Of a stretch of DNA of 64,000 bases, positions 4,839-51,346 are shown in pieces. Source of the DNA: Candidatus Fraserbacteria bacterium (GTDB lineage: Bacteria; Bipolaricaulota; Bipolaricaulia; RBG-16-55-9; JAJCYT01); the NCBI GenBank assembly GCA_029262795.1, contig JAJCYT010000018.1:3762-67761 (forward strand), written 5' to 3'. Each line of letters begins with the position of its first letter. Position 1 is the first letter of the stretch. The notes beneath the pieces were generated by a model. It did not search any database and had not been told where the DNA came from. It saw only the letters and a program-made list of their open reading frames with translations. The position numbers and the translations under genes were made by a program.

Positions 4839-6773
4839 ATGAATAAATTTGTTTGGGAACCTTCCGAAGAAGTCATCAACCGAAGCAACATCAAAGCTTT
4901 TATGGATCGTCACGGCATCGACGATTATGCCCAACTGATAGAAAAAACCACGGATGATATTGAGTGGTTCTGGGAAACGATGGCTCAGGAATTGGACATT
5001 CAGTGGTTTACTCCCTATGAAAAAATATTGGACACATCGGATGGTATTCCTTGGGCCAAATGGTTCGTGGGTGGCAAACTCAATTTGGCTTATCAATGCG
5101 TGGATTACCACGCGCAAAAAACACCCAATCGAACGGCCCTCATCAATGAACACGAAGACGGAAAAGTTCGTGCCTACACTTATGTCGAACTTTTGAGTGA
5201 GGTCAATCGCCTTTGCAATGCGCTGAAAAATCAGGGCATTGAACCAGGCGATCGCGTTGGCATTTATCTGCCCATGATTCTGGAAAACGTGGTTGCTTTA
5301 CTGGCTGTGGTCAAACTGGGCGCGATCTTTACACCGATTTTTTCCGGCTTTGCCGCTTCAGCAGTCGCTTCCAGAATCAATGACTGCGAAGCTAAAATTC
5401 TCATTACTGCCGATGGTTTTTATCGCAAGGGCAGTGTGATCTCGATGAAAGCCATTGCTGATGAAGCGATTAAAAAATGTCCTTCCATCGAACACATTGT
5501 GGTTTGCAAAAACACAGACACTGAGGTTGATTTCAATCCCGATCGCGACCTCTGGTGGCATGAAGTCACTGAGCAAGTCGATAACCAATTTGAAGCCGAA
5601 CCAATGGATTCGGAGGCCCCTTTTATGATTGCTTACACCTCCGGCACCACAGGCAAACCCAAAGGCGTGGTGCATGTGCATGGTGGTTTCCTGGTCAAAA
5701 TTGCCCAGGAGGTCTACCATCAGACCGACCTGCACCCAGAGGAAGACGTGTTGTTTTGGATCACTGACATGGGTTGGATCATGGGACCCTGGGAAGTGGT
5801 CGGCGGTTTGGCATCGGGTGGCACTGTCTTCTTATACGAAGGCGCACCAGACTATCCAGGTCCAGACCGGCTATGGCAAATGGTGGATCGCCACAACATT
5901 TCCATCCTAGGCGTGTCTCCCACACTGATACGCGCATTGACCAAATTCGGCACGGAGCCATTGAAAAAACATAATCTGTCCAGCATCCGCATCATCGGTT
6001 CGACGGGGGAGCCTTGGAACCCTGAACCCTATCGCTGGTGTCTGGAGCATGTGGGCGGTAATCGTGCGCCGATTATTAACATCTCCGGTGGAACTGAAGT
6101 TGGCGCCTGTTTTTTGTCACCACTCCCCATCACACCATTGAAGCCTTGCGCTTTGGTCGGACCGTCGTTGGGTATGGATATTGATGTGGTGGATTCAGAT
6201 GGCAATTCCGTTCGCGGCGAAGTGGGCGAGCTTATTTGTCGCAAACCCTGGCCAGGGATGACGCGTGGCGTGTGGAAAGATCCGCAACGTTATTTGGACA
6301 CATATTGGCATCGCTGGGATAATATTTGGGTCCACGGTGACTGGGCTTCTATCGACGAAGATGGCCTGTGGTTCCTGCATGGGCGCAGCGATGACACAAT
6401 CAACATTGCTGGAAAACGGGTTGGCCCTGCCGAATTTGAATCGGCATTGGTCGAACACCCCGCCGTGATGGAAGCGGCTGCGGTGGGCGTGCCTCACGAA
6501 CTCAAAGGCGAGACTGTGTGGTGTTATGCGGTGCTGAAACCTGATCAAACAGTCAATGAAGATTTGCGCCAAGCGCTGTTCGACACCGTCACTTCGGTGA
6601 TGGGAAAAGCGTTCAAGCCTGGAAAAATTCAATTTGTCAACGAACTGCCCAAAACCAGAAGCGCCAAAATTGTACGTCGTGCCGTCAGAGCTGCCGCCCT
6701 CAATGAAGACCCAGGCGATTTATCCTCACTCGAAAACCCAAGCGCCTTAAACGCAATTCAGAACGCAACTTAA
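4839..6773 (+). CDS. AMP-forming acyl-CoA synthetase (acetyl-/propionyl-CoA synthetase family)
   Basis: 644 aa. AMP-binding motif YTSGTTGKPKGV. ACS-like N-terminus (WFxGGKLN). C-terminal motifs consistent with the ACS family. Confidence 0.85.
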   Translation: MNKFVWEPSEEVINRSNIKAFMDRHGIDDYAQLIEKTTDDIEWFWETMAQELDIQWFTPYEKILDTSDGIPWAKWFVGGKLNLAYQCVDYHAQKTPNRTALINEHEDGKVRAYTYVELLSEVNRLCNALKNQGIEPGDRVGIYLPMILENVVALLAVVKLGAIFTPIFSGFAASAVASRINDCEAKILITADGFYRKGSVISMKAIADEAIKKCPSIEHIVVCKNTDTEVDFNPDRDLWWHEVTEQVDNQFEAEPMDSEAPFMIAYTSGTTGKPKGVVHVHGGFLVKIAQEVYHQTDLHPEEDVLFWITDMGWIMGPWEVVGGLASGGTVFLYEGAPDYPGPDRLWQMVDRHNISILGVSPTLIRALTKFGTEPLKKHNLSSIRIIGSTGEPWNPEPYRWCLEHVGGNRAPIINISGGTEVGACFLSPLPITPLKPCALVGPSLGMDIDVVDSDGNSVRGEVGELICRKPWPGMTRGVWKDPQRYLDTYWHRWDNIWVHGDWASIDEDGLWFLHGRSDDTINIAGKRVGPAEFESALVEHPAVMEAAAVGVPHELKGETVWCYAVLKPDQTVNEDLRQALFDTVTSVMGKAFKPGKIQFVNELPKTRSAKIVRRAVRAAALNEDPGDLSSLENPSALNAIQNAT

Positions 6774-6863
6774 CTGGCTTCAACAACATCTGTCACACTC
6801 AGCCATTTGGTTGTTAATATGCCTTCATCAGGGTTGAGAAATTTTTTATTTGGAGGACATTTT

Positions 6864-7889
6864 ATGTCCAGGTATGTTTTTATTCTCACCATTCTGATCG
6901 GAGTTTGGATGTCATTTGATCAAAGCCCGCCAGCCTCAGCATTACAGCAAAGCAATTGTAATTTGCCACAAACCCCATTTGCCTTTGAAGGCAATCAGTC
7001 CGAACTTCCTCCGCTAAAACGAGGGAATGATCTTTACACCAACCCTGGGGCAGTCATTTTTCACGATGGCCTATTCCATATGTTCCGTAACAATTTCACC
7101 AACTGGCCTGGACTCATTCGTGTGTTTCATCTCACTTCAACCGATGGCATAACTTGGTCCACCAAAGATGAAACTCCAGTGTTTGCCAGCAGCGAAGTGT
7201 CGTTTGCCAATCCTGGTGCAGATGTGTCTAGTGGTTATGTGGCTGATGATGGCACGTGGGTGTTGTATTTCCACACGGTGAATTTCACTGGTGGTTCTGT
7301 GATTGGCCGCATGACGGCGGATTCTCCACTTGGCCCTTGGGTGGTGGATGAAGAACCTGTGCTGCGTCCTGGCAGTGGGTCTGCCTGGGATCGTCGCAAT
7401 GTGGTTTGGCCAAGTGTGGTGCAAACTGATGAAGGTTTTGTGATGTTCTACGGTGGAGAGCGCAGCAGCCGCCAATCCAACATTGGCCGTGCCACTTCCA
7501 CGGATGGCATTAACTGGATCAAGCACAACGATCCAAATACAGATGGTGCATTTGAAGAAAGTGATCCCATTGCTTTGCCAGAGGAAAGTTGGGAGGGTGG
7601 GATTCGCAACCGTCCTGAAGTTCAATTGACGCCGGATGGTTGGGTGATGGTGTTTCAAGGTGGATCTAAGCTCAACAATCGCGGCTTGGCTGTGAGTCAG
7701 GACGGCATTGTGTGGACGCCTCATTCAAATAACCCTGTATTGCAAGGCGAAGATTTTCCCATCACTGGAACCACTTGGGACACGGCTTTGGCCTTCAATG
7801 GAGAAGATTATTTCTACTTCATGGAAATCGGCAGCTTGGCGTTTACAGATATTTTCGTGGCCAGTCATCGCGGCCTGCTTTGCCGCTAA
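6864..7889 (+). CDS. Beta-propeller glycoside hydrolase (GH43/GH130-like fold) with N-terminal membrane anchor/signal
   Basis: Repeated blades DGTWVLYFHT / DEGFVMFYGG / DGWVMVFQGG. N-terminal hydrophobic segment. GGAGG RBS before ATG 6864 (ORF track starts earlier at 6807). Confidence 0.55.
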   Translation: MSRYVFILTILIGVWMSFDQSPPASALQQSNCNLPQTPFAFEGNQSELPPLKRGNDLYTNPGAVIFHDGLFHMFRNNFTNWPGLIRVFHLTSTDGITWSTKDETPVFASSEVSFANPGADVSSGYVADDGTWVLYFHTVNFTGGSVIGRMTADSPLGPWVVDEEPVLRPGSGSAWDRRNVVWPSVVQTDEGFVMFYGGERSSRQSNIGRATSTDGINWIKHNDPNTDGAFEESDPIALPEESWEGGIRNRPEVQLTPDGWVMVFQGGSKLNNRGLAVSQDGIVWTPHSNNPVLQGEDFPITGTTWDTALAFNGEDYFYFMEIGSLAFTDIFVASHRGLLCR

Positions 7890-7956
7890 TTAAAACAAGA
7901 CCACTGACATAAAGAATAAAGATTCAATTTAAGAACAAACACCCGAATCCCCATCT

Positions 7957-8001
7957 TAGCCCCCTTCAGACGAAGGGGGTTGGGGGTTTGAAGCCTTTTA
8001 C
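7957..8001. repeat. G/C palindromic repeat element / bidirectional terminator between convergent genes
   Basis: tagCCCCCTTcagacgAAGGGGGttgggggtttgaagcc. Near-identical (about 45 nt) to the copy at 51124-51169. Confidence 0.6.
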
Positions 8002-8029
8002 ATTATTAACTTTATGTATTTCTTAGTTT

Positions 8030-9295: not shown

Positions 9296-10786
9296 TTAGA
9301 ATTTAAAGGTCAATTGGGCATTCAGGGAGCTGAGTCCGGTGTTGCTAAAACTCATTGAGCTGTTGATACCAAAGTTTGAAGTGATGTTGCCATTGACCGT
9401 GAAGGTGGTCGAATAGCTGCCAAAGCCACCTTTCGGGCCAGTGCCCGGGCTGCTGAACACCGCATTGGCAAACACAGACAAGCCCGACAGTGTGGTGGTC
9501 TGGAAACGGAAGCTGAGGCTATTAAGACCTGTGCTCGGCAAAAACACCACCGTGCTGGAAATCACCGAGCTGTCCAAACTAACCGACAGGGTAGAGGTGG
9601 TTGAGGTGATGCTAAATGATTCATCCATCGCAATGGACACTGTCAGTGGCGCACTGTTGATAAAAATGCTTGTCGATAAGGGGGCGAGGTTGACCACATC
9701 CTTCATGGTCAGGGTGATGGTGGCATTGACCATGTTGTCAAAAAAGCCGTGGCGCATGGTGATCGTTTCGGAGATCAATAATGGCGTCAACTCAAATTCG
9801 CTGCGGCTGCTGATGGTCAGGCTGCCGATGCGAATGTTGTCAATAAAAAGCTGTTCCACACACAAGGCCAGTGCATCTGCCTGGATGCCAGGGTTGTTGT
9901 TTTCGCACACCGATCCCAAGAACGTGGCTTTTTTGATCAGGCTGGGAATGTCAGGATCTGCCCCCAAACCAGTCACGCTGCGGAAACTGATACCACTGAC
10001 CGTTTGGCCAGAAACCGTGATGATGTTGCCAAAACGAAAATCCTGGAAACTGGTGCCATACGTTTGCACCGCAGACAAAAATGGATGGGTGAATTCGACG
10101 TCTTCAAAAATGGCCAGGTTGGTGATGTTAAAGCCAGCCAGGTTGATGTTGGTGGTAAAGCGTTTTTTCACAAACAGGGTCGGCCCGATAGGGCGCGTGA
10201 TGGGGCTGATGGCAAAGTCTGAGCCAAAAGGCGTGGCATCCAAACCGTTGGCCGTGCCATCGGCATCGATGTCTGGGTCCACTTCGTTGGGCACGCCATC
10301 ACCGTCGATGTCAGGCCGAATGAAGCCTTGGAATGAGCCAAAGGGTGTGGCATCGGCAAGATTGAGTATGCCGTCGCCGTCGATGTCGGTGTCCACAAAG
10401 TTCAGGGTGCCATCTGTGTCAATATCATCTGGGATCCCGTTGCTGAACGGGGTGGCAAACACGGATTCACTCCGCACGTTAAACGCACCTAGCTGGGTTT
10501 CGACGGTAAAAATGGAATGTTCGATGCCAGGCACCCCCAGCGCCAAGCGACTGCCAAAGGTGATGCCGGAGATGGTCCATTTGACATTGCTTAACACTTC
10601 AAAGTCGAGGTTAAACTCCACGGCTTCGGTTTGCGTGGCAATGGGCAGCATGCCCAACTGCAAAGTGACATCGCCTGTAACATCCGCTTGTGCCTGTGTC
10701 TGCCAGGCGGTCACGCACAGCAACACCACCATGAAAATCCCACACCAACGTTTCACCCAAGCCTCCTGTACCTGCATAAAGCGCAT
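9296..10786 (-). CDS. Outer-membrane-type surface protein with thrombospondin type-3 (Ca-binding) repeats; paralogue of 26338..27711
   Basis: Signal peptide ...VTAWQTQAQA/DVTG. Asp-rich repeats DTDGTLNFVDTDIDGDGILNLADATPFG..DIDGDGVPNEVDPDIDADGTANGLDATPFG. Ends in ...LTFKF (C-terminal Phe, beta-barrel-like). Motifs shared with the paralogue (ADVTG, TQTEAV.FN.D, NLAIFEDV.F, TVSGQTVSGI). Confidence 0.6.
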   Translation of the reverse strand: MRFMQVQEAWVKRWCGIFMVVLLCVTAWQTQAQADVTGDVTLQLGMLPIATQTEAVEFNLDFEVLSNVKWTISGITFGSRLALGVPGIEHSIFTVETQLGAFNVRSESVFATPFSNGIPDDIDTDGTLNFVDTDIDGDGILNLADATPFGSFQGFIRPDIDGDGVPNEVDPDIDADGTANGLDATPFGSDFAISPITRPIGPTLFVKKRFTTNINLAGFNITNLAIFEDVEFTHPFLSAVQTYGTSFQDFRFGNIITVSGQTVSGISFRSVTGLGADPDIPSLIKKATFLGSVCENNNPGIQADALALCVEQLFIDNIRIGSLTISSRSEFELTPLLISETITMRHGFFDNMVNATITLTMKDVVNLAPLSTSIFINSAPLTVSIAMDESFSITSTTSTLSVSLDSSVISSTVVFLPSTGLNSLSFRFQTTTLSGLSVFANAVFSSPGTGPKGGFGSYSTTFTVNGNITSNFGINSSMSFSNTGLSSLNAQLTFKF

Positions 10787-11078
10787 CTGTTCAGCGCTAG
10801 AGTACAACCCAGTGTATTGTCGTGGAGATCACAAAGAAGTGATTGAAATCACGCCAGAGGCGTTAAAATTGTCTGGTACATTACACATTGCAAAAGCCGG
10901 ACCCGACACTCAAACAAGCAGGCATTTGCAACAGCTCATAAACTTGCAAGCAATGATGACTTTGGTTAAGATACGCAGGCCTTTCGGGCATTCATCTTAT
11001 AGGTCTGATTTTCTGAGTGTTTTGGTGCAGCAATAGGGCCCTTGCAACACATGGATTTTCAGCCAAATTTGAACGTTT

Positions 11079-13057: not shown

Positions 13058-14176
13058 TTGACCTTGAAGAAGTGGTACGCAGTACAAACATATGCTGGTA
13101 GTGAACTCAAAGTGGCTGAGCAACTTGAGGAGCGCGTTTTAGAATACGAGCTGCAAAAATGGGTTGCTGAATTTAAAAACAATGACGAAGGTGCACGCTT
13201 TTTGGTGCCTGTGGAGGAAGTAATCACCTCCAAAAGTCGCCGTGGTCAACCTGGCGATTTGCGTGTACCTTACTATAGTTCCGACCAGCCTGGTTTGGGC
13301 GAAAAGTACGAAGTCAAGGTGGACGGCAACAAGCGTGTTACGCGCGGTGATGTGGTGGCAATCAAGGCCAAACGCTACATGACGTTTGATGCCAAAATTA
13401 CCGAGATCGAATCGTTGCAGCGCGTGGTGATTGAGTTAAATAACCGCAATGAAGAAACATACTTGATTCCTCAGGACAGCCGCATCCGCCGAGATATCCG
13501 TGTGGGCGAGCGTGTGCTTAGCGGCGTGCCTTTAACCGCCGACAGCGACCCGCGCTACATGCTGAAAAATCGCGGCAAAGTGGTGGTGCGTGACCGCGTC
13601 AAACGATTGACGTTTGAACGCGCAGAAGGCGAACCGGTCATAGAAGTGATTCCTGATCGTTTTTTAGTCAAGATCAAAGAAGGCCAACGCCTTAAAGAAG
13701 GCGACCTGCTGGAGCGCGAAGATAAAATTACCAGCCGCGCCACCGGCATGATCAGAATTAAAGAATACAAAGACAAACGTGTGGTCACGGTGCAGCGCAT
13801 TGAAAAGCGCCGCTTGTTCCCAGGCTACTTGTTTGTCCGCATGGACATGAATTCGGAATCGGCCAAGATTGTTGATGGTGACATTAAGTGTCGTTTTGTC
13901 GGCGATCCACCTGTGCCCATTCGCGAAGAAGAGATGAAGGTGGTCAAACGCAAGTTTGGTTTGGCCGAAACCCCCACGGTCAAGCGAGATCGGCCAAAGA
14001 TCGAGGTCGATTTCAACATGGGCGAAGTGGTCGAGATCATCGAAGGCCCATTTGCCGACTTTACGGGCGAAATCACCAAAATTGATAAAGACCATGAAGA
14101 ACTGACTGTGGTCGTGAAAATCTTTGGCCGCGAAACACCGGTAACCCTGGGGTTTGAAGGCGTGGAAAAACTGTAA
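13058..14176 (+). CDS. nusG: Transcription antitermination factor NusG with large (about 200+ aa) insertion in the NGN domain
   Basis: N-terminal KKWYAVQTYAGSELKV. Resumes at RLFPGYLFVRMD. C-terminal KOW domain GEVVEIIEGPFADFTGEITKIDKDHEELTVVVKIFGRETPV. TTG start with AAGAGG RBS. Confidence 0.85.
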   Translation: MTLKKWYAVQTYAGSELKVAEQLEERVLEYELQKWVAEFKNNDEGARFLVPVEEVITSKSRRGQPGDLRVPYYSSDQPGLGEKYEVKVDGNKRVTRGDVVAIKAKRYMTFDAKITEIESLQRVVIELNNRNEETYLIPQDSRIRRDIRVGERVLSGVPLTADSDPRYMLKNRGKVVVRDRVKRLTFERAEGEPVIEVIPDRFLVKIKEGQRLKEGDLLEREDKITSRATGMIRIKEYKDKRVVTVQRIEKRRLFPGYLFVRMDMNSESAKIVDGDIKCRFVGDPPVPIREEEMKVVKRKFGLAETPTVKRDRPKIEVDFNMGEVVEIIEGPFADFTGEITKIDKDHEELTVVVKIFGRETPVTLGFEGVEKL

Positions 14177-14193
14177 GTTGAGCGAGGTAATTT

Positions 14194-14625
14194 ATGGCAG
14201 GAAAACCAGTCGAAGCAATCATTAAACTTCAGATCCCGGCAGGGGGCGCAACGCCCGCACCACCGGTGGGTCCGGTGCTCGGTGAGCACAAGGTCAACAT
14301 CATGGATTTTTGCAAAAAATTCAATGACATGACCAAAGAGCTGGAACAGGGTATGGTCATTCCAGTGGCTATTTCCGTTTATCCAGACAAGAGTTTTGAC
14401 CTGGAACTGAAGCAGCCGCCTGCATCCGCTTTGTTGAAAAAAGCGGCGGGTTTGCAAAAGGGTTCTGGCGAAGCCAACCGACTCAAAGTGGGTCGCATCA
14501 ACCGCGATCAATTGCAAAAAGTGGCCGAAACCAAAATGCCGGATCTCAATGCCAACGATATTGATGCCGCGATGAAAATCATCGAAGGCACGGCGCGCAA
14601 CATGGGCATTGAAGTGGTTGATTAA
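14194..14625 (+). CDS. rplK: 50S ribosomal protein L11
   Basis: [44 protein letters not shown]. Confidence 0.95.
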
Positions 14626-14639
14626 TTCAGGAGTTTTTT

Positions 14640-15344
14640 ATGGTAAATGGAAAAAGACAAGCAGCCCTGCTGGAAAAAGTGGACCGAGACAAATTTTACA
14701 CCACTGAAGAAGCAGTGGCTTTGCTCAGAGAAAGCAAAACAGCAAAGTTTGAAGAATCTGCTGATGTGGTGTTCAAATTGGGCTTAGACCCCAAGCATAA
14801 TGAAAACCGCATCCGCAGTACGGTGGTATTGCCCAACGGGCGCGGCAAAACCGAAATTATTTTGGTGATTGCCCAGGGCGATAAAGCCAAGGAAGCCGAA
14901 GCGGCGGGCGCCGACTTTGTGGGCGCTGAAGACATGATCGAAAAAGTCTCTGGCGGCTGGCTGGATTTTGACCGCATGATTGCCACGCCTGATATGATGG
15001 CTGTCGTCAGTAAACTCGGCCGTGTATTGGGTCCGCGTGGTCTGATGCCCAGCCCAAAAAGTGGCACGGTGACCATGGATATTGGTGACGCCGTCAAGGA
15101 ATTTAAGGCAGGTAAAATTGAATTCCGCTTGGATGAATACGGCAATGTTCATGCACCATTTGGCCTGGCTTCATTTGAAGCAGGCGATCTAAAACAAAAT
15201 TTGTTGGCGCTAACCAGTGCCGTTGTGAGCGCAAAACCTGAAGGCGCCAAAGGAAAATATATTAAAGGGGTCAGCATTTCAGCAACCATGGGGCCAGGCA
15301 TCAAGCTGGACCAGGATGAGTTGTTGTCTCAGGCCTCGGCCTAA
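14640..15344 (+). CDS. rplA: 50S ribosomal protein L1
   Basis: L1 family sequence. 14-nt spacer after rplK. Confidence 0.95.
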   Translation: MVNGKRQAALLEKVDRDKFYTTEEAVALLRESKTAKFEESADVVFKLGLDPKHNENRIRSTVVLPNGRGKTEIILVIAQGDKAKEAEAAGADFVGAEDMIEKVSGGWLDFDRMIATPDMMAVVSKLGRVLGPRGLMPSPKSGTVTMDIGDAVKEFKAGKIEFRLDEYGNVHAPFGLASFEAGDLKQNLLALTSAVVSAKPEGAKGKYIKGVSISATMGPGIKLDQDELLSQASA

Positions 15345-15363
15345 TGCGATCAAGGAGTGCGAA

Positions 15364-15876
15364 ATGCCAACCGCAAAAAAAGAAAATGAAGTTGCGCTGC
15401 TTGAAGAAAAACTAAAAAGCGCCAGCGGCGTGGTCATCACAGACTATATTGGGATGAACGCCCAGGAAATGTGGGAAATGCGAAAGGAACTCCACGAACA
15501 AGGGTTGGAGTTTCGCATCGTGAAAAACCGTTTGGCCCGAATTGCCGCAGAACGGGCTGGTGTCGAAATTGGCAGCTATATTGAAGGGCCAACCGGCATT
15601 TGCTTTGGCTACGACGATCCGGCTGTGCCTTTTAAGGCGACCAGCAAATTGTCGAAAAGGTTTAAGCAGTGCAAGCTCAACGGTGGTGTCTTTGATGGCA
15701 TGGCTATTCCCAAAGAAGAAGTGTCACGCTATGCCAACTTGCCAACCAAGGAAGAAGCCTTGAGCAAATTGGCAGCCGTGTTCCAGGCACCTGCGCAGAA
15801 ATTGGCCGTGGCACTGGCTGGCAATGCACGCAACCTGGCCGTGGTGTTGGGTGAAGTGGCAAAAACGAAAGAATAG
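15364..15876 (+). CDS. rplJ: 50S ribosomal protein L10
   Basis: MPTAKKENEVALLEEKL... AAGGAG RBS. The ORF track's upstream extension is rejected. Confidence 0.9.
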   Translation: MPTAKKENEVALLEEKLKSASGVVITDYIGMNAQEMWEMRKELHEQGLEFRIVKNRLARIAAERAGVEIGSYIEGPTGICFGYDDPAVPFKATSKLSKRFKQCKLNGGVFDGMAIPKEEVSRYANLPTKEEALSKLAAVFQAPAQKLAVALAGNARNLAVVLGEVAKTKE

Positions 15877-15927
15877 ATTCTTTAACAAATAAAGATTTTA
15901 AGAAATTTGCAAGGAGGCTTGTTTATC

Positions 15928-16392
15928 ATGGCTGAAGAAAAAGAAGTTCAGGAAACAGAGGCAACTGAAGCAGCACCAGAGGCTGCAGAATCCAACGGTG
16001 GGGCGAAGCCTCAGTCCGGTAAATTTGAAGACTTGTTGGCAAAAATCGATGAAATGACCGTCCGCGATTTGGTGGACCTGGTTGAAGACATCGAAAACCG
16101 CTACAACGTCAGTGCCAGTGCAGCCGCAGTGGCTGTGGCCGCACCTGCAGCAGGCGGCGATGGTGGCGGCGATGCGGCCAGCAGCACGGTCAGTGTGATC
16201 TTGAAATCTGCAGGCCAGCAGAAAGTTCAGGTCATCAAAAAGGTCAAAGAATTGACTGGTAAAGGTTTGAAAGAAAGCAAAGAGTTGGTGGATGGCGCTC
16301 CCAGTCCCGTTAAAGAAAACGTGGATATGGACGAAGCCAACACCATCAAAGCGCAGCTGGAAGAAGTTGGCGCTGAAGTTGAACTTAAATAA
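15928..16392 (+). CDS. rplL: 50S ribosomal protein L7/L12 (extended Ala/Gly-rich hinge)
   Basis: MAEEKEVQ... C-terminal VIKKVKELTGKGLKESKELVDGAP...EAEVELK. AAGGAGG RBS. Confidence 0.9.
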   Translation: MAEEKEVQETEATEAAPEAAESNGGAKPQSGKFEDLLAKIDEMTVRDLVDLVEDIENRYNVSASAAAVAVAAPAAGGDGGGDAASSTVSVILKSAGQQKVQVIKKVKELTGKGLKESKELVDGAPSPVKENVDMDEANTIKAQLEEVGAEVELK

Positions 16393-16409
16393 AACAATCG
16401 CAGTTGATT

Positions 16410-16530
16410 TTGCCTCCCCACTGGCCGCTTTGGTCGGTGGGGGCGCACTCTTTTAGTTGGAGATAAGAAGCCGAAGATCGGAAACGAAACGTTGTCCGAC
16501 TTTCGGCTTTTGATCTCCTTTTTTGCATTT
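16410..16530 (+). terminator. rplL-rpoB intergenic attenuator/terminator (two hairpins, second followed by a T-tract)
   Basis: Hairpin ccccactggcc...ggtcggtgggg. Hairpin agccgaa...ttcggct followed by tttgatctccttttttg. Confidence 0.45.
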
Positions 16531-16544
16531 GTGAGAGGAGAACC

Positions 16545-19500
16545 ATGCGCCAGCGACACTCTTACGGAAAAGTCGTACCTGCATTGGAGTTGCCTTATTT
16601 GTTGGAAGATCAGCGAAAGTCATTCGACTGGTTTGTAGAGAAGGGGATCGTAGAGTTGCTGGAGGAAGTGTCTCCAGTTCAAAACGACAACCGCCCGGAA
16701 CTCACCCTGGAAATCACAAACCCTCGCTTTGAAGATCCTCACAACACCGAGCAGAGCTGTAAGGACAAAAACCTCACCTTTGCCGCCCCGTTGCGGGTTC
16801 AAGGCAAATTGGTGTTGGAAGGCAAAGTGATCAAGGAAGACGATCTGTTTTTGGTGGACATTCCCAAAATCACCGACCGTGGCACCTTTATCATCAATGG
16901 CTCAGAAAATGCCATTGTCAACCACCTGACACGTTCTCCTGGGGTTTATTTCACCCTGGAGTCCCAAACCCCAAAGGGCAAAGAATATCGCGCCCACATC
17001 CTGCCCGATGACGGCGCTTGGCTGGAAATTATCTTGGATACCGCACGCGGCCAGGTGTATGCCAACTTGGATCGAAAAGGCAAAATTCCCGTCACCGTGC
17101 TGCTTAAGGCATTGGGACTGAAGCACGAAGAAATTTTGGGCCGCTACAGCGTCGAAGTGCCTGTGGATATGCTCGAAGCCAACCTGGGGCGCATGGTGAG
17201 CGAAGATATAAAGGCTGGCAAAAACATCGTGCTCAAAGCCGGTGAACTCCTGGATGACAAAGCCATTGAAGAAATTTCTAAAACAAAAGCCGCGCAAATT
17301 AAACTGGTCAACCCTTTTGTGCAGGACAGCTTCAAAAACGATCCCTGCAAGAGCCGCGAAGACGCCATCATGCTGGTCTATCGCAAACTGCGAAGTGGGG
17401 ATCGCTTTACCCAACAACAGGCAGAAGATTTTTTCAACAAGCTTTATTTTTCTGAAGAAAGCTATAACCTGTCACGCGTTGGACGCTTTATGTTCAACAA
17501 AAAGCTGGGCACCAAAGGCCAGGGCACTGCGCTGCAGGAGCAGGAAATCATCCTTATTATTGATCGCCTGCTGCAGGTGCTGGATGTGCCTGAACTGGTT
17601 GATGACAAAGACCACTTGGCCAACAAGCGCGTCAAGCTCCCAGGTGAAGTGGCCTGGGATTCGCTGCGCTCCGGCTTACAGCGCATGGCAAAAATCACCA
17701 AAGACCGTTTGGGCAAACTAAATCTGGAAGAAGATGAAGTGTCTTTGCGTGCTTTGATTTCCTCAAGGGCTGTGCAAAGTGCCATTAGTAAACTGTTCTA
17801 TGTTGGCCGTTTGAGTCAGTTCCTGGAGCAAATCAATCCATTGGCAGAACTGACGCACAAACGCCGACTCAGCGCGCTGACCAGTGGTTCGGCCAGCAAC
17901 CGTCGCCGCGCCAAAATCGAAGTGCGCGACGTTCACGCATCACATTATGGCCGCATCTGTCCCATTGAAACCCCGGAAGGCCAGAACATTGGCTTGATCA
18001 CTTCGCTGGCAACGTATGCGCGGCTGAATGAGTACGGTTTTTTAGAATCGCCATACCGGCGGGTTAAAAAGGGCAAACTATTGGATGAAGTCGTTTACCT
18101 GATGGCCGATGAAGAAGAACAATATAAACTGGCCAGTATTTTGACCCCTACGGACGAGAAGGGCAACCTTCTGCCCGATCAGGTTGAAATTCGCACAGGC
18201 AAAGAAAACATCCGCTACGTGCCAAAAGACCAGGTGGATTTTGTCGAAGTGGCGCCCACCGAACTTGTGGGCGTGTCAGCCAGTTTGATTCCATTTTTGG
18301 AACACGACGACTCCAACCGGGCCTTGATGGGCACCAACATGCAACGCCAGGCTGTGCCTTTGCTCAAGCCCAAAGCCCCTTACGTGGGCACGGGCATGGA
18401 AGGCCGTGTCGCCAAAGACTCCGGCTTAATGGTATTGGCCAAAGAGGACGGCGAAGTCGTAAAGGTTGACGCTTCGCATGTGGTGATCAAGAGCAAGAAA
18501 AAAGAACATGAATATCAACTGACCACCTTTGAGCGCACCAACCAGAACACCGCCCTGCACCAAAAACCCATCGTTGAATTGGGACAGAAAGTACAAGCTG
18601 GCGACGTGTTGGCCGATGGCCCCGCCACCGATTTTGGCGAACTGGCCCTGGGCACCAATATTATGGTCGGCTTTTTGCCGTTTGAAGGTTACAATTACGA
18701 AGACGCCATCCTCATTTCTGAACGTCTGGTCAAAGAAGATGTGCTCGACTCACTGCACATCCACGAAATTGAGGTGCGCGCCGAAGAAACCAAGCTCGGT
18801 CCCGAAGAAATCACCGCCGATATTCCTGACATCACCAAAGAGGAGCTTCGCAACCTCGATGACAGTGGCGTGATTCGTGTGGGCACCGACATCAAAGTGG
18901 GCGACATTCTCGTGGGCAAAATCACCCCGCGCGGCGAAAGTGAACCCACACCGGAAGAACGCATCTTCCGCTCCATCTTTGGTGAACGCTCTCGAAACGT
19001 GAAAAACACTTCCAAACGCTTGTCTCCTTCTGTAGGTGAGCGCGGCAAAGTGATTCGTGTCAAGAAGTTTTCCAGAAACAACAACGATGAACTGGAAGCC
19101 GGCGTCAATGAGCTTGTAAAGGTCTATATTGCTCAGCGCAAAAAGATCTCTATCGGCGACAAGCTGGCAGGCCGCCACGGCAACAAAGGCGTCATCTCAC
19201 GCATCATGCCTGAAGAAGACATGCCTTTCCTGCCGGATGGCACACCGTTGGACATGGTGCTCAACCCGCTTGGGGTGCCTTCGCGCATGAACCTGGGCCA
19301 GGTGTTTGAACTGCACCTTGGCTGGCTGGCTTCACTCAAAGGGTCCAATGCCGCCACCCCAGTGTTTGATGGCGCCAAGGAGGAAGCGCTCTTTAACGAG
19401 CTGCACGAACTTCGTGAACAGCATGGCCTGGCAGAAGGCGATGGCCAGGACAACACCGAAGGCGTTCCTGATGGCAAGGTGCTGCTGCGCGACGGTCGCA

Positions 19501-26264: not shown

Positions 26265-26278
26265 AGGAAAAATATAAA

Positions 26279-26310
26279 AGGCCCCGGAGAAAATCTCCAG
26301 GGCCTTTTCT
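26279..26310 (-). terminator. Rho-independent terminator of the OMP-like gene 26338..27711
   Basis: ggccccggaga-aaa-tctccagggcc flanked by A-run and T-run (bidirectional). On the minus strand it is followed by TTTTATATTTTT. Confidence 0.55.
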
Positions 26311-26337: not shown

Positions 26338-27711
26338 TTAGAAAGTCACACCCATGTTGATCACAACTGTGCCGATACCAGATGGGGAGAAACCTGCATT
26401 GGCAGACAAGGCAAAACCGTTGCCATAATCCACGCTCAATGCAAAGCTGGTGCCAGTCCAGTCCAAGTTGCCGGAACCGTCGCCAGCAAAGCCGGTGGTG
26501 GTGTCCAGGCTCAAGATGCCGCGGCTGATACCCAAAGCGAAAGAAGCATCGCTCAAACCACTGGCGTCAGATTCCAAAGTAATGGTCAAATCGGCTGGGT
26601 TCTGATTCGGGTTCAACACCAGGCTCAAGGAAGAGGTCGTACCGTCAAACTGGAAGTTACCATCGGTGTCTTCCAAGGACAGGGTCAGGTTGCCCGAAGT
26701 TACGGACACGCTGAGGCTGTCGAAGGCCAAGTTGGTGATGTTGGTAGACGTCAACGTGGCTGTGATGTCAGCCAGGTCCAACAAGGTGAAAGAAGCGTTC
26801 AACTCAGAAGACAAAGGCTGCAATGGAATGAACGTGGTGCTCAAGTCGAAGCTGATGCCACCCAGTTCCACACCGGAGATGATCAGGTCTTCGCGTTCAA
26901 ACAACAATGGTGTTTTTGCGCCGCCTTCAACAGGGGTGCTGTCATTGCCGAAACCAGCCGTACAAGCCTTGTTTACTTCCCAAGCGAAGCTGCGTTTCTT
27001 AATGTAATTGCGGCCATTTGCACAAAAAGCGGTGCGCCCCGTCACGGTGATACCAGAAACGGTCTGACCACTGACAGTGATGACGTCACCAAAGCCAAAG
27101 GTTGGCGTCTGGTCGTCTACCAAGCTGTTTACTTGGCCCACATAATAGACATCTTGCAAAGCAGAGACGCCATCAAAGTGGTCGTGTTCGTGGCCGCCGC
27201 CGCCCTGAATGTCAGGGAAGTCAACGTCTTCGAAGATTGCCAAGTTGTTCAAGGTGATACCAGCAATGTTCAATTCCAAACCGATGCGTTTTTTCACAAA
27301 ACCCACAGCACGGTCAACCACGCCATCACCATTGCCATCACCGATGGCAAGGACATTTTCGCCAGAGCACTGACCGGAACCTGGGAAGCTGGTACAACCA
27401 AATGGTTCAGCGAACACAAATTGGTCGTTGACCTGAAGCGCACCCAAGCTGGTGTTCAGGTTCAAAATGGCAAATTCGATACCGGTGGTACCAAAGCCAA
27501 TGTCGGCACCCAAAGTCAACCCACTCAAGGTCACGTTGACCTGCAAGTTGGCCTGGATATCGAAATTGAACTGAACCGCTTCGGTCTGTGTCCCCATAGC
27601 GATCATCTGAATATTTAAATCGAAACTACCGGTAACGTCTGCTTTGGAAGTGGCTGCAAAAGTTGCAACCAAGATTAGAGCTAGAAAAGCCGAGAGAATT
27701 CTTCTAGACAC
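26338..27711 (-). CDS. Outer-membrane-type surface protein, paralogue of 9296..10786 (single TSP3-like Asp repeat), C-terminal Phe
   Basis: Signal peptide MSRRILSAFLALILVATFAATSKA/DVTG. Ends ...VINMGVTF. GGAGGG RBS. About 770 bp untranslated upstream region. Confidence 0.6.
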   Translation of the reverse strand: MSRRILSAFLALILVATFAATSKADVTGSFDLNIQMIAMGTQTEAVQFNFDIQANLQVNVTLSGLTLGADIGFGTTGIEFAILNLNTSLGALQVNDQFVFAEPFGCTSFPGSGQCSGENVLAIGDGNGDGVVDRAVGFVKKRIGLELNIAGITLNNLAIFEDVDFPDIQGGGGHEHDHFDGVSALQDVYYVGQVNSLVDDQTPTFGFGDVITVSGQTVSGITVTGRTAFCANGRNYIKKRSFAWEVNKACTAGFGNDSTPVEGGAKTPLLFEREDLIISGVELGGISFDLSTTFIPLQPLSSELNASFTLLDLADITATLTSTNITNLAFDSLSVSVTSGNLTLSLEDTDGNFQFDGTTSSLSLVLNPNQNPADLTITLESDASGLSDASFALGISRGILSLDTTTGFAGDGSGNLDWTGTSFALSVDYGNGFALSANAGFSPSGIGTVVINMGVTF

Positions 27712-28484
27712 TCAAACCCTCCTTAAATGTTTTTTGCTTTTTTTGGGGTTATACAAAAATTAATAACAGCTTTTAAACAAGCATGTTTGTAACTCGAATC
27801 TGGTGCATCACCCCCCTTTTGGGATGTAACAAAAGCCAATTTGTATTGAGCTTTACATAATCGCAATGTCTGTTGCCCAAAATTTATTGACCAGAAACAG
27901 TGCATTCACTCAATGATCGATCCCCTCTGTCTCTATGCACTGAATTTCTGACAATTTCTGACTTTTTTTACGTATAATCGCTCTGATATTGTAGCCGAGT
28001 TATGGATAAAAGTCAACAGGGAAAACCGTCTTCTGTATTACATTCATGGCCTATTGAAGGCCATTTCTTGGAGTGGGTCATGCAAACAAGAGATTCATGG
28101 AGATAATAAGGCTCTAGAAGGCACCTTTTGTAATGTAATAGACAATAAAATCAAGAAATATTTTTGGAGTCTTTTTTCGCCGACGCAGCCACCAATGGGC
28201 GGCAGGCATCCACGAGTGCGTGTAAAGGCGCAGGATTGCCCGCACTGCTGCGCAGACGGCATCCCAACACAATGAACAGGCTGCCTATGCTTGAAACCAC
28301 ATAGCGCCAGATGTGGCGGTAGAAGAGATTTTGTTTGGGTTTCAATTGGCAGTGCTCTCCCATATTTGGTTGTTTTACCTGATGATTTAATGAAGTCATG
28401 TGCTTGCTTTCCTCAAGGTTCAATCGCGGTGAATTGTTTCTGCCAAATTCAATCAATACACATATTAAGGATAAGGGCGTTATA

Positions 28485-31046
28485 TTAATCTTCGCTGTCT
28501 TCTTCGTTTTCCTCTAACGACGCTTCAAGTTCTTCGGCCCAGGCTTCCATGTCGGCTTCAAGCTGTTCACCCCAGGCCTCCATGTCGGCTTCAAACTGTT
28601 CGGCCCAGGCTTCCATGTCAGCTTCGAATTGCTCTTCCCAGGCCTCCATGTCGGCTTCAAACTCTTCTTCCCAAGCCTCCATCTCTGCTTCATGTTGTTT
28701 TTCCCAAGCTTCCATGCCAGCTTCGAAAGCCTCTTCATCCCAACTGTTTGGCCAATTTATTTCATGGCCAAATTCTTTTAAGAAAGCTTTTGCGCCATTG
28801 ATGAGATGTTTCCATTCATCAGCCACGTCATCCATATCAATGTCTATGCTGATGTTCGCAGAAGATGGATTAATGATGATGACTTTATTACCTGCAGCAC
28901 GATCCAGGATCACCAAATTTTCAAACATTTCGCTGAGCATCAGTTGGATTTCAACTTTGACCTCGTCAGTGGCAATCCCAATCAAATCACTCAACGCGCT
29001 GCCTAAAAAGCCCAGTTTTTTGGAAAGAATGATTTCAACATACACATCAATTGAATCCACCAACCCGGTGGCAGCATCCGTCAACGCATTCACGTCATCT
29101 TCCAATGCTGTGTTAAAGCGTTCTTTCAACTCTGATTTAACATCAAAATCAGGATCGATGGCTTCAATGTTGTCTAAAGCCTGCTCCAACTCTGTCATGA
29201 TCTGCTTGTAGGCCACCGAAAAACTCTGAAGCCTAATTTTAGCTTGTTCTCTAGCACCTTCTTGGCCGGAGGCAAACAACTCTGACAACGCATTGAGGTG
29301 CGTGGTGGTGGTTTTTAATAAAATGGCCACTTTGTCAATCAACACAACAATCTGTTCATCCAGAGCATCTTTTGCAGCCACTTCGCCGCCACCAGTGCCT
29401 TCGGTTAAATGTTTCAGTTTGTTGATTTCCTGGGCCACATCCACAAACACATTGACATTCTGTGGGTTGTCAGCAGGCACCGCTGGGATCGCATCCTGTG
29501 GCTGCTCAGGTGGTACTGCTTCAAACCGATCTTCACGAACCATCGGGCGAGCAGGACGTTCTAATGTAGGTTCAAATTCGTCGGGGGCTTCATTGTGATC
29601 TTCTACCGAAGCCAACGCCACATCCTCGTTCGGTCCTGGTGCCCAAGGTTGAATGGCAGCCAATGGCACCATCACCACCACCATGACGATGGCGATAAAG
29701 CCAATCAAGATCGGTGACAAGGCGCGACGGTTCAGGCGTGGATTCAAAATCGCCAGTAGACGACCTTCCAATTGTGAACGGCGTGCCATGGCAATGGTTG
29801 CCAACGAGGCCACTCTGGCTGAACGTAATGAACGGGCAATGTCTAACAAGTGGCCGGCATAATCACTGGCCAGCGTGCCCAACTGCAACACTTGATCATC
29901 ACAGGCATGTTCGCGTTCCACACGCATTTTGTACGCAGCCACCCACACCAACGGATTGAACCAGAACAAGGCGCAGGCAATCTGAGCCATCATTTGGGTC
30001 AGTGTGTCTTTTCGTTTGACATGGGCCAACTCATGCATCAACACCACGCGGCATTTTTCTTCGGGCCAGATACCGGCTTCTTCAGGCAGAAGGACCACCG
30101 GCTTGAACACGCCCCAGGTCATCGGTGTGGCGGCATGTTTGCCCTGCCATAATCGGATAGGGCGATCAATCTCGAAACGCTGACAAATATCGTCACACAA
30201 TTTGGTCCAGTAAGGATAAGTAATGGTTTCCGCTCTTCTGGACACCCAGCGAATCCACAACATGCCCAGCAACAGTCGCCCCATGATGAACATAAAACCA
30301 ATGCCCCAGACCAACACGCCAACTAAAATCCACTGCGTTGATGAAAATGATGCCAAAAAGTCAGAAGGCGTAATTGGGCTTGGTGTCATGACAGGCTGAA
30401 CAGCCACTTCCCTGGAAATAACTTCAGGGGAGAATTGCTCCATATTGTCAGTTTTTAGAGGCGCTCTGGTCACGGGTATCGTTTCGGACAAAGTGGCTTC
30501 GACCCTGACTGTTTCGCTTGCTATCGCGGGTTGATTTGCAATGACAGTTTCAGCAGGCGCTTGAGAGACTGCGGGTGTTTGTGGCTTCTGGCGTACTTGG
30601 GGGTTCTGAGACGTTTGTGGCGTCTGAGGTGTTTGAGCTTGAACAATATTATTGGCAGTTGTTTGTGCTTCAGTCGAAGAACCAATGGCAGGGTTGATAA
30701 AGGCTTGCTTAAAAAAGAGGAAGCTGGAAGGCTGATGACTCACAGCATCTTGCTGGATCGCGTTAGAAGTTGTCACTTCTTCTTGAGATTGGACAACGGG
30801 TTCAACCGCATTAATCTCAGGCAAAAGAGGCAGATTCCAGTTGGGCAACAACATGGACAACACGGGTACCAACAACACACCAAACAGGCCAAAGCTCCAC
30901 ACCCAATGACGTGCAGCCGCAGACGCACGGCGCAATAAGTAGGTGATGCCTGCTGCAATCGTCAGCAACAGAGTGCCTTTTAAGGTGACATCAATGATCC
31001 ATTTCAGCAAATCCTGATTGTTCAGCAACCCTTCCACCCAGGTCAT
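28485..31046 (-). CDS. BlaR1/MecR1-family M56 membrane metalloprotease signal transducer with non-canonical sensor (Q/P/T-rich extracytoplasmic loop; C-terminal acidic 11-mer repeat domain)
   Basis: N-terminal TM helices like BlaR1. Zinc-protease motif VLMHELAHVKRKD (HEXXH). Fourth TM ILIGFIAIVMVVVMVPLAAI. C-terminal about 360 aa ends in 6-8 copies of EADMEAW.EQF. No transpeptidase/PBP-like (SxxK) domain. Confidence 0.7.
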   Translation of the reverse strand: MTWVEGLLNNQDLLKWIIDVTLKGTLLLTIAAGITYLLRRASAAARHWVWSFGLFGVLLVPVLSMLLPNWNLPLLPEINAVEPVVQSQEEVTTSNAIQQDAVSHQPSSFLFFKQAFINPAIGSSTEAQTTANNIVQAQTPQTPQTSQNPQVRQKPQTPAVSQAPAETVIANQPAIASETVRVEATLSETIPVTRAPLKTDNMEQFSPEVISREVAVQPVMTPSPITPSDFLASFSSTQWILVGVLVWGIGFMFIMGRLLLGMLWIRWVSRRAETITYPYWTKLCDDICQRFEIDRPIRLWQGKHAATPMTWGVFKPVVLLPEEAGIWPEEKCRVVLMHELAHVKRKDTLTQMMAQIACALFWFNPLVWVAAYKMRVEREHACDDQVLQLGTLASDYAGHLLDIARSLRSARVASLATIAMARRSQLEGRLLAILNPRLNRRALSPILIGFIAIVMVVVMVPLAAIQPWAPGPNEDVALASVEDHNEAPDEFEPTLERPARPMVREDRFEAVPPEQPQDAIPAVPADNPQNVNVFVDVAQEINKLKHLTEGTGGGEVAAKDALDEQIVVLIDKVAILLKTTTTHLNALSELFASGQEGAREQAKIRLQSFSVAYKQIMTELEQALDNIEAIDPDFDVKSELKERFNTALEDDVNALTDAATGLVDSIDVYVEIILSKKLGFLGSALSDLIGIATDEVKVEIQLMLSEMFENLVILDRAAGNKVIIINPSSANISIDIDMDDVADEWKHLINGAKAFLKEFGHEINWPNSWDEEAFEAGMEAWEKQHEAEMEAWEEEFEADMEAWEEQFEADMEAWAEQFEADMEAWGEQLEADMEAWAEELEASLEENEEDSED
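28527..28736. repeat. 33-bp tandem repeat array (encodes the EADMEAWxEQF 11-mer repeats) inside the BlaR1-like gene
   Basis: Repeating ggcccaggcttccatgtcggcttcaaactgttc units. The antisense ORF 28549..29211 reads SMSASNCS repeats. Confidence 0.7.
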
Positions 31047-41790: not shown

Positions 41791-42052
41791 GTGCAACCTC
41801 CTCAAAAGTGTGTCTGCACCTACACCATAAAAACAATCCACTCAAATTGTCAATAGAGATGTACAAAACCCTCAAGGGGTAACCTTAATTTCCCCGTGAC
41901 GCGAGTTACATACGTTGGGGACACGCGTCCCTATAATCTCGGACAATACGGCGGCCAGAATTCTGTTTGTGGCCGTGGCTTTGGTCTTGCAGCTACCCAT
42001 AAGCGGCCAGATCAAATAATTGACCAAGCAACATAACCGAAGGAGGTTACTT

Positions 42053-44401: not shown

Positions 44402-44539
44402 GACCTGCCTGCAAAACCGATTCAATGCGAACCGGATTTGCAAGGTGGTCACTGGATAAGCAAACGAAACCTTTACGGTTAATGTTGCTCGATTTAGACC
44501 TGAAGCCTAGGTTTAAAACCGATAAATTACAACCACCTT

Positions 44540-44576
44540 CCCCAGAGGGCGTGTGCGCCAGCACCGCCCTCTGGGG
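44540..44576 (+). terminator. Stem-loop (12-bp perfect stem) between beta-helix genes 1 and 2
   Basis: ccccagagggcg-tgtgcgccagcac-cgccctctgggg followed by atcccacccccatagtttt. Confidence 0.4.
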
Positions 44577-44606
44577 ATCCCACCCCCATAGTTTTGGAGG
44601 AGAGGC

Positions 44607-48257: not shown

Positions 48258-48278
48258 ATTTTTAAAGGACAAATAAAG

Positions 48279-50774: not shown

Positions 50775-50789
50775 TTTTTTAGAGACCTA

Positions 50790-50946
50790 TCTACTTGAGA
50801 AAGCAAATCATTATGATGGATAAAAGCTCTAATCCCCCAACCCCCTTTACATAAAGGGGGCACAATCCGACTGCGATGGTCTGTTCTTTGATAAATATCG
50901 TTATCTCTGAATGAAATATTGGGATTGGGTTGCTTTCTCAAGTAGA
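50790..50946. repeat. MITE-like element: 17-bp perfect terminal inverted repeats (tctacttgagaaagcaa) flanking about 125 bp that contain a CCCCCAACCCCCTTT-acat-AAAGGGGG palindromic repeat
   Basis: IR at 50790-50806 and 50930-50946. A degenerate direct duplicate of the internal segment (about 70% identity) lies just outside at 50951-51000. Confidence 0.45.
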
Positions 50947-51123
50947 CAGTCCTCTTACATAAAGAGCGCACGATGGGGATGCGATGTTTGTTCTTTAGGA
51001 TGTAGCGTCATTCTTTTTGAGGGTTTTAGTGCCCAGTATTTATATCTCAAAAAATATTTACTACTTAATCTTTCGGCTAGAATAACGTTATGAACTGAAG
51101 AGCAACCTCAAAAAATCAAACTG

Positions 51124-51169
51124 TAGCCCCCTTCAGATGAAGGGGGTTGGGGGATTTGAAGCTTTTAAC
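51124..51169. repeat. G/C palindromic repeat element, near-identical copy of 7957-8001
   Basis: tagCCCCCTTcagatgAAGGGGGttgggggatttgaagcttttaac. Confidence 0.6.
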
Positions 51170-51346
51170 CCTTTTAATATATGCCTTTGCTTTTTCAAAT
51201 GAATACATCTTGTTTTTTAACCGAGAGAGAGATGGACATACAGAAGTTTAAAACCTCTGTATGTCCATCGAGAAATGAAGAGTGTAGTGAAGAACGACCG
51301 CTGAAGACGAAAGCCTTACAGCAGTCGCTCTCCCACTCTTTTTCAA

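Follow-up and report, generated by a model that had tools for sequence, protein, structure and literature searches.

Two genes on the minus strand of a 64,000-nucleotide stretch of the Candidatus Fraserbacteria contig JAJCYT010000018.1 (hereafter, the window), named here A and B, encode paralogous proteins that are predicted to fold as 22-stranded beta-barrels. We consider it probable that both are Sec-exported barrels of the beta-barrel assembly machinery (BAM) type from a multi-copy, lineage-restricted family, that this family is the Omp-beta-like barrel of a split Omp-alpha/Omp-beta tether, and that a module in loop L3 of the A protein binds Ca2+. As judged by sequence comparison, A and B fall in no curated family of outer-membrane proteins (OMPs), and the family appears to be undescribed. 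The details added here are the 22-strand prediction, the expansion of paralogues, and the arrays of Ca-binding type inserted in the loops.

An earlier note, made from the letters of the window alone, had described two homologous genes sharing signal peptides, an ADVTG start, several motifs, and a C-terminal phenylalanine, and on all these points it was right. Both open reading frames (ORFs) exist, and their products are 30% identical over ~430 aa (BLASTP, E-value 3e-37); no third copy was detected in the window by tblastn or with the family hidden Markov model (HMM). The motifs TQTEAVxFNxD, NLAIFEDVxF, and ITVSGQTVSGI, the last including the TVSGQTVSGI singled out previously, are common to A and B. 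Each precursor reads as a basic and then a hydrophobic segment ending in AxA directly before DVTG, where the cut would fall (MKRW...AQA in A, MSRR...SKA in B), and the junction, written as A[DEQ][VIL][TNS]G near the N-terminus, recurs in 98/188 family members. A lipoprotein reading of the proteins was rejected, as VLLC is not a lipobox.

At the opposite end, A terminates in LNAQLTFKF and B in VVINMGVTF, i.e., both have the final Phe typical of outer-membrane barrels. The last residue is aromatic in all 136 full-length members of the family (Phe in 134). Hydrophobic residues occupy positions −1, −3, −5, −7, and −9 in 100, 97, 88, 95, and 67% of these members, respectively, compared to just 12–30% at positions −2, −4, −6, and −8. 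The beta-signal is thus kept family-wide.

The start of gene A had to be moved. The enclosing ORF spans 9296..10807, and the ATG at 10786, implied by the coordinates given earlier, is unsupported as a start. Since the AGGAGG site and the N-termini of homologues agree on it, the GTG at 10756 is most likely the true start, as far as can be read from the sequence: it lies 5 nt past AGGAGG, and N-termini MKRW, MKRC, or similar are found in 12/12 close homologues of gene A. Gene B also starts with GTG (27711), behind AAGGAGG, a strong Shine-Dalgarno sequence. The structural model of A begins one residue past the GTG, so that residue n of the model is residue n+1 of the 486-aa protein.

AlphaFold2 (AF2), run from 36-sequence alignments, gave 22 long strands for A (predicted local distance difference test, pLDDT, 77.9; predicted TM-score, pTM, 0.67) as well as for B (pLDDT 84.8, pTM 0.75). 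The connections following even strands comprise 2–6 residues, and the long ones (L1, L3, L4, and L5) all follow odd strands; the predicted topology is that of a classical OMP, with short turns and both termini in the periplasm. Among the 50 Foldseek matches in PDB listed per model, outer-membrane barrel proteins account for 50/50 with A and 49/50 with B, the exception being titled an artificial metalloprotein, and the Foldseek probability of the listed barrel matches is 1.00. None of these matches is close: the best query-normalised TM-scores among them are ~0.4 (maximum 0.43), observed with PfeA, FimD, and PapC, which have 22 to 24 strands. A profile search of PDB sequences yielded nothing at E ≤ 10, and the Pfam and NCBIfam scans of A and B yielded only sub-threshold matches to TSP_3, MtsC, BamM, and LiaG. 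Hence, the barrel foreseen in the earlier note is borne out by the models and their structural matches, and its suggestion of an OmpA-like or porin family has to be dropped, as neither A nor B has such a match at the sequence level. Family HMMs detected no plug domain and no OmpA C-terminal domain in either protein. Conservation within the family is highest at the tops of strands 6–7 and in loops L3–L5, regions that carry basic FVKKR and IKK, acidic FEDVDF, and a pair of Cys residues.

Another explanation of the same models would be that the barrel is an AF2 artefact on a Ser/Thr-rich beta sequence, the proteins being secreted or of the surface-layer (S-layer) type, rich in beta structure but not embedded in a membrane. 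Composition speaks for it: mature A and B contain 0.4–0.9% Tyr and 0.2–0.5% Trp, unusually little for OMPs, along with 7–9% Phe, much Ser, Thr, and Asn, and K+R of ~3–4% vs. D+E of ~10–11%. Outer-membrane barrels normally carry Tyr/Trp girdles. The lack of a Pfam OMP match and the low TM-scores to known barrels point in the same direction, and a hexagonal S-layer has been reported on the toga of Bipolaricaulota (bioRxiv 10.1101/2025.11.21.689855). Nevertheless, two independent models converge on one 22-strand map, nearly all of the listed structural matches are outer-membrane barrels, the canonical C-terminal beta-signal is conserved across 136 members, long loops and insertions are confined to one face, and relatives are linked to a gene for an Omp-alpha-like protein with an SLH domain, a coiled coil, and a transmembrane helix (see below). 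With these observations taken together, a soluble or S-layer-type protein seems very unlikely.

The strand number by itself would also suit gated active transporters of the TonB-dependent type, in which an Asp-rich loop captures metal. Two of the better TM-scores belong to PfeA and OprC, and the surface loops contain DxDxDG and HEHDH motifs, the latter a sequence that may form a surface metal-binding site in L4 of B. Yet neither protein has a Plug or TonB_dep_Rec domain or an N-terminal plug region, the mature protein opens with strand 1, and no TonB/ExbBD genes lie nearby. The TonB-dependent receptor reading was rejected for want of a plug, and we give it hardly any credence.

Word-indexed search identified 44 relatives of A and B, all of them unannotated, and a HMMER profile search among 1.84 billion representative proteins extended the family to 240 relatives, each standing for a cluster at 50% identity (~240 clusters). 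Among one-genome-per-species GTDB contigs, the named hosts are metagenome-assembled genomes (MAGs) labelled Candidatus Bipolaricaulota/Acetothermia and Candidatus Fraserbacteria, and one labelled "uncultured Thermotogae." Full-length alignment of gene B with the Bipolaricaulota copies gives 42–45% identity. Multiplicity is pronounced: one 3.2-Mb contig of a close relative, Ga0315338_1000001, which shares 90% clusters with EF-Tu and RpoB of the window, contains at least 10 paralogues (loci L018, L019, L020, L024, L026, L035, L036, L039, and L045, where L and P numbers label loci and proteins of relatives), including a tandem pair at the start of the contig. The first cultured member of Bipolaricaulota has been described as having a toga-like outer membrane that bears a hexagonal surface layer, a lattice of 6.25 nm (bioRxiv 10.1101/2025.11.21.689855), and the split tether has been reported for both Bipolaricaulota and Fraserbacteria (bioRxiv 10.1101/2021.05.31.446380). 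Thus, homologues are not confined to monoderms; confinement to monoderms would have spoken against the earlier assignment to the outer membrane. Two members of the family, P0016 and P0017, have an N-terminal PKD domain (PF00801/PF18911) ahead of the barrel.

The genomic context of the relatives provides the functional clue. In three loci (L017, L022, and L037), an Omp-alpha-like gene is situated directly upstream of a family barrel gene and is co-oriented with it; the barrels of L022 and L037 are 62% and 67% identical to gene B, respectively. The Omp-alpha-like product of L017, read over its full sequence, consists of an SLH domain, a coiled coil, and a C-terminal transmembrane helix, and the products of L022 and L037 align with it over nearly the whole length; in L017 and L022, the SLH score exceeds the Pfam cutoff. 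No CsaB gene was found near the pair among the L022 ORFs scanned. The pair apparently exists in the organism of the window as well. L046 is a Logan contig whose sample also holds the exact RplA of the window, and in it the gene of P0207, a homologue of the Omp-alpha-like protein, is followed after 139 bp by a gene starting MSRRILSALLALILVAGFAFATKADVTGSFDL, which is a third paralogue of A and B. Because relatives adjoin Omp-alpha genes and A and B do not, we conclude that the family supplies the barrel in the Omp-beta position, with A and B as its standalone members.

In distant subfamilies the neighbours are different, and they underlie the main rival to a structural or contact role, namely that the barrels serve specifically as pores for exporting very large surface proteins of the TSP3-rich, beta-helix, or cadherin-like type, or as their membrane anchors, with the loops of A docking such partners. 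In L004, L006, L007, and L040, the barrel gene is directly followed by a gene for a 1700–1860-aa protein, and in L005 the start of a similar gene is seen at the same place (Table 1). The giant proteins of L004 and L007 combine Big_3_5 domains with many TSP3_bac repeats (25–30 DxDxDG motifs), and a BTAD/STAND regulator, Pfam-confirmed in L007, is encoded upstream. This arrangement looks like a conserved operon joining the barrel to a giant surface protein of putative Ca-binding type. In L014, a gene encoding a 526-aa Beta_helix protein (6428..8008) overlaps the start of the P0023 gene (8001..9323) by 8 nt, which suggests translational coupling of the two; a BTAD regulator gene is also present near this pair. 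The best structural matches of barrel size include the ushers FimD and PapC, and genes for three beta-helix proteins and one cadherin/Big_9 protein of 3919 aa are present in the window itself. On the other hand, A and B are standalone, more than 14 kb separates them from the large proteins of the window, some of which are encoded on the other strand, close homologues of B pair with Omp-alpha rather than with giant proteins, the paralogues (at least 10 per genome) outnumber obvious cargo genes, and no POTRA, plug, or usher-type domain is present. For A and B, an export or anchoring function therefore appears unlikely, and an Omp-beta-like barrel is preferred.

The insert that distinguishes A from B is located in loop L3, between strands 5 and 6. 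The earlier note had counted four or five TSP3-type calcium-binding repeats there; the repeats are present, and there are exactly four of them, organized as two double units of ~38 aa that each end in DATPFGS, with a spacing of 13 residues inside each pair. Tandem Repeats Finder detected no repeat in the insert at the DNA level, so the duplication is detectable only in the protein. The putative ligand positions are invariant in 13/13 members of the A subfamily, whose aligned sequences are 53–89% identical. L3 of A aligns to a 35-residue loop of B, where, in line with the single repeat ascribed to the paralogue, one DGNGDGVVD motif occupies the place homologous to the A repeats; many members of the B subfamily have GDGDGDGVID instead. 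The TSP3 region of NCBIfam MtsC shows local similarity to A (E-value 1.3e-7). Weak matches of the insert to BamM, dockerins, and EF-hand proteins in PDB were set aside as generic DxDxDG similarity rather than homology. The proposal of a Ca-binding surface loop is upheld to the extent that the insert sits in a long odd-to-even connection, which is extracellular if the usual OMP topology holds, and we infer from the motif that the module binds Ca2+ at the cell surface.

Similar arrays are found elsewhere in the family. DxDxDG motifs are concentrated in L3 (29 sequences) and L4 (14 sequences), and L4 of P0057 has as many as eight of them; in P0053, multi-copy arrays were placed by hand in L9 and L10, i.e., likewise after odd strands, and P0130 and P0133 carry arrays too. 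None was assigned to a turn after an even strand across the family. On the modelled topology, this distribution suggests repeated, independent insertion of DxDxDG arrays on one face of the barrel. Given the arrays in several loops and the TSP3_bac giant proteins in operons, surface repeats of Ca-binding type appear to be a recurring theme.

Several observations weigh against the proposed identity of A and B as Omp-beta-like barrels with a Ca2+-binding loop. Besides the scarcity of Tyr and Trp, no SLH-like gene lies beside A or B or elsewhere in the window, as assessed by a regular expression with a positive control and by tblastn. Nor is BamA encoded in the 64-kb window, its gene being expected outside it. 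The coupling of barrel genes to giant TSP3 or beta-helix proteins in other subfamilies makes a role in export or anchoring possible, and barrels of Thermotoga, except for BamA and one permease, are reported to have no homologues outside that phylum (PNAS 2023, PMC10160955). As for the module, the L3 insert of A is modelled with low confidence (pLDDT below 50). The HMM check proposed in the earlier note gave a divided answer: Pfam TSP_3 matches 10/13 members of the A subfamily at E ≤ 0.1 (best E-value 1.2e-6), but the score of A, 18.2 bits, falls short of the cutoff of 25, and A lacks a match to Pfam TSP3_bac. Because of this sub-threshold score, the description "TSP3-like DxDxDG loops" fits A, and formal membership in the Pfam family does not.

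A tentative model of function can be outlined. The family would supply the barrel partner of the SLH/coiled-coil protein Omp-alpha in toga-bearing bacteria of the Bipolaricaulota/Fraserbacteria type. Each protein would fold as a 22-stranded barrel with short periplasmic turns and with long, conserved L3, L4, and L5. The eyelets of porins suggest, by analogy, that the three loops most likely bend across the lumen or into it, and a diffusion channel would owe its size and charge to them. In A, the four DxDxDG-type loops of the L3 module would bind Ca2+ at the surface; the bound ions may stiffen L3 and may let it make Ca2+-dependent contacts, either to adjacent barrels or to surface proteins in which these repeats abound. 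A bolder version, which we regard as rather unlikely, makes the barrel family the unit of a toga surface lattice, in which the DxDxDG arrays are Ca2+-bridged lattice contacts that also dock the giant TSP3 proteins, so that porin, tether partner, and S-layer are united in one protein.

The suggestion that A and B belong to the major OMP family of the organism is supported by the Omp-alpha-adjacent paralogues, by the copy number in the related genome, and by codon usage resembling that of tuf and rpoB. With tuf, rplA/J/L, and rpoB as reference, gene A has a codon adaptation index of 0.705 and gene B one of 0.688, and among the other genes scored outside this reference set only one exceeds them. 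Codon usage thus gives a slight hint of high expression of both genes, and A and B could be abundant proteins.

Long untranslated leaders and strong terminators had been attributed to both genes; this description applies to gene B, with a leader of ~270 nt (27712..27987) downstream of a sigma-70-type promoter and a terminator with a 15-pair stem. Simple scans found neither a promoter nor a terminator for gene A, which is followed after 48 bp by a DCC1-like gene in conserved synteny. Both promoter hexamers of gene B are kept in L010 and L018, and blocks of its leader, e.g., TTTGTTACATCCCAAAAGGGGGGTGATG, are conserved in the same two loci; conservation of the leader equals that of the coding region in L018 and is weaker in L010. 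The leader has no match among Rfam families, and it may act as a regulatory or stabilising 5' untranslated region. Upstream of gene B, at 28485..31046 on the minus strand, an 853-aa sensor of the BlaR1 type with an M56 peptidase domain is encoded; the syntenic locus L010 has a gene for a BlaI-type repressor ahead of the gene of the BlaR1-type sensor.

Table 1. Sequence features of genes A and B in the window, and genes situated directly 3' of the barrel gene in loci of relatives (coordinates of the respective locus).
Feature	Coordinates	Strand	Basis
Gene A, 486-aa precursor, predicted 22-stranded outer-membrane beta-barrel	9296..10756, stop codon included	-	ORF, AF2, and Foldseek
Shine-Dalgarno sequence AGGAGG of gene A	10762..10767	-	sequence reading; also kept in L008 and L045
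Signal peptide of gene A, MKRWCGIFMVVLLCVTAWQTQAQA followed by DVTG	10685..10756	-	sequence; N-terminal helix by AF2/DSSP
Loop L3 of gene A, strands 5–6, with module of Ca-binding type	10178..10453	-	AF2 strand map
Four DxDxDGxxNxxD repeats of gene A, TSP3-like	10238..10426	-	regular expression and local alignment
Individual repeats of gene A	10391..10426; 10352..10387; 10277..10312; 10238..10273	-	
C-terminal beta-signal of gene A, SLNAQLTFKF	9299..9328	-	hydrophobic at −1, −3, −5, −7, and −9
Gene B, 457-aa paralogue, predicted 22-stranded barrel	26338..27711	-	ORF, AF2, and Foldseek
Single DGNGDGVVD motif of Ca-binding type, loop L3 of gene B	27313..27339	-	regular expression and AF2 strand map
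HEHDH motif, loop L4 of gene B, residues 174–178	27178..27192	-	found in 23/188 family members, all of B type
Sigma-70-type promoter of gene B, TTGACT-17-TACAAT	27988..28016	-	consensus scan, 10/12 matches
Intrinsic terminator of gene B, 15-pair stem followed by T-rich tail	26276..26308	-	terminator scan
Gene directly 3' of barrel gene, L004	6947..12139		
Gene directly 3' of barrel gene, L007	7347..12845		
Gene directly 3' of barrel gene, L006	4380..9968		
Gene directly 3' of barrel gene, L040	4500..10004		
Gene directly 3' of barrel gene, L005	from 4875, partial		

Three further groups of genes in these loci deserve mention. The window contains three consecutive genes for Beta_helix/NosD-like proteins of 793, 1216, and 831 aa (42020..50774, plus strand), adjoined by a gene encoding a 3919-aa protein with ~30 Big_9/cadherin-like repeats (51347..63106, minus strand); these large genes at 42020..63106 are a probable cluster of surface proteins. 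The NusG protein encoded at 13058..14176 has 372 aa and an extra domain, NusG_add, i.e., the same domain II insertion as NusG of Thermotoga maritima, whose full-length structure is its best PDB match (2XHC, E-value 2e-48). Finally, the contig of L017, which also holds an Omp-alpha/barrel pair, encodes at 14184..17812 Pup-ligase homologues, a proteasome subunit, and UBact, which together constitute a bacterial ubiquitin-like tagging system.

At the heart of the debate on how the second membrane was gained and lost are the outer membranes of deep-branching bacteria that carry a toga, and the barrel proteins of these lineages are poorly known and unannotated. The family corresponds to the Omp-beta-like barrels that had earlier been noted in Bipolaricaulota and Fraserbacteria by genomic position only. 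It is now defined as a set of ~240 clusters at 50% identity, without a model in Pfam or NCBIfam and without a relative of solved structure. Its members are targets for proteomics and cryo-electron tomography of the newly cultured Bipolaricaulota strain, and a family model would improve the prediction of envelope proteins in MAGs.

[quoted passage not shown] The proteins of the family resemble Omp-beta in being ~45-kDa barrels that start with a signal peptide and carry an anchoring motif with Phe at the C-terminus, and, as in the ompA1-ompB arrangement of Thermotogae, some of them are encoded directly downstream of a gene with SLH, coiled-coil, and C-terminal transmembrane segments. The family and the split system reported by Witwinowski et al. 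occur in the same host lineages, and the presence of several barrel paralogues per genome recalls the toga proteins of T. maritima. In contrast to the Omp-alpha/Omp-beta pairs, A and B have no adjoining SLH gene. To our knowledge, neither 22 strands, nor the motifs FVKKR, FEDVDFP, and GQTVSG, nor loop arrays of Ca-binding type have been described for Omp-beta.

OmpM/SlpA of diderm Terrabacteria, from a related region of the tree, have the same presumed job, that of an outer-membrane barrel tied to the cell wall by an SLH/coiled-coil stalk. However, they are single polypeptides, whereas in the family described here the barrel forms a protein of its own, and the majority of paralogues have no tether. 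OmpM/SlpA are absent from the 50 Foldseek matches listed per model, and no PDB chain matches A or B by sequence.

The L3 module of A is similar to bacterial TSP3 proteins (PF02412 and PF18884; e.g., OmpA-family proteins with TSP3 linkers, MtsC of Myxococcus, and TraB) in its contiguous Asp-rich DxDxDG loops spaced by 13 residues. It differs from TSP3 linkers or soluble stalks in its location inside a barrel loop, on the predicted extracellular face. Further, the repeats of A have Asn in place of the consensus Asp at position 9, and, unlike eukaryotic TSP3, the module has no Cys residues.

With respect to architecture, the models share an antiparallel barrel, short periplasmic turns, and a long L3 with general porins (OmpF/OmpC, Rhodobacter porin) and with larger barrels such as TonB-dependent receptors and ushers. 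They differ from the porins in strand number (22 vs. 16 or 18), from the receptors and ushers in lacking plug or usher domains, and from all of these in lacking any sequence similarity at the family level and in that Phe stands in for the usual Tyr/Trp residues of the girdles. Like the general porins, A, B, and their relatives have clusters of charged residues that could form an eyelet.

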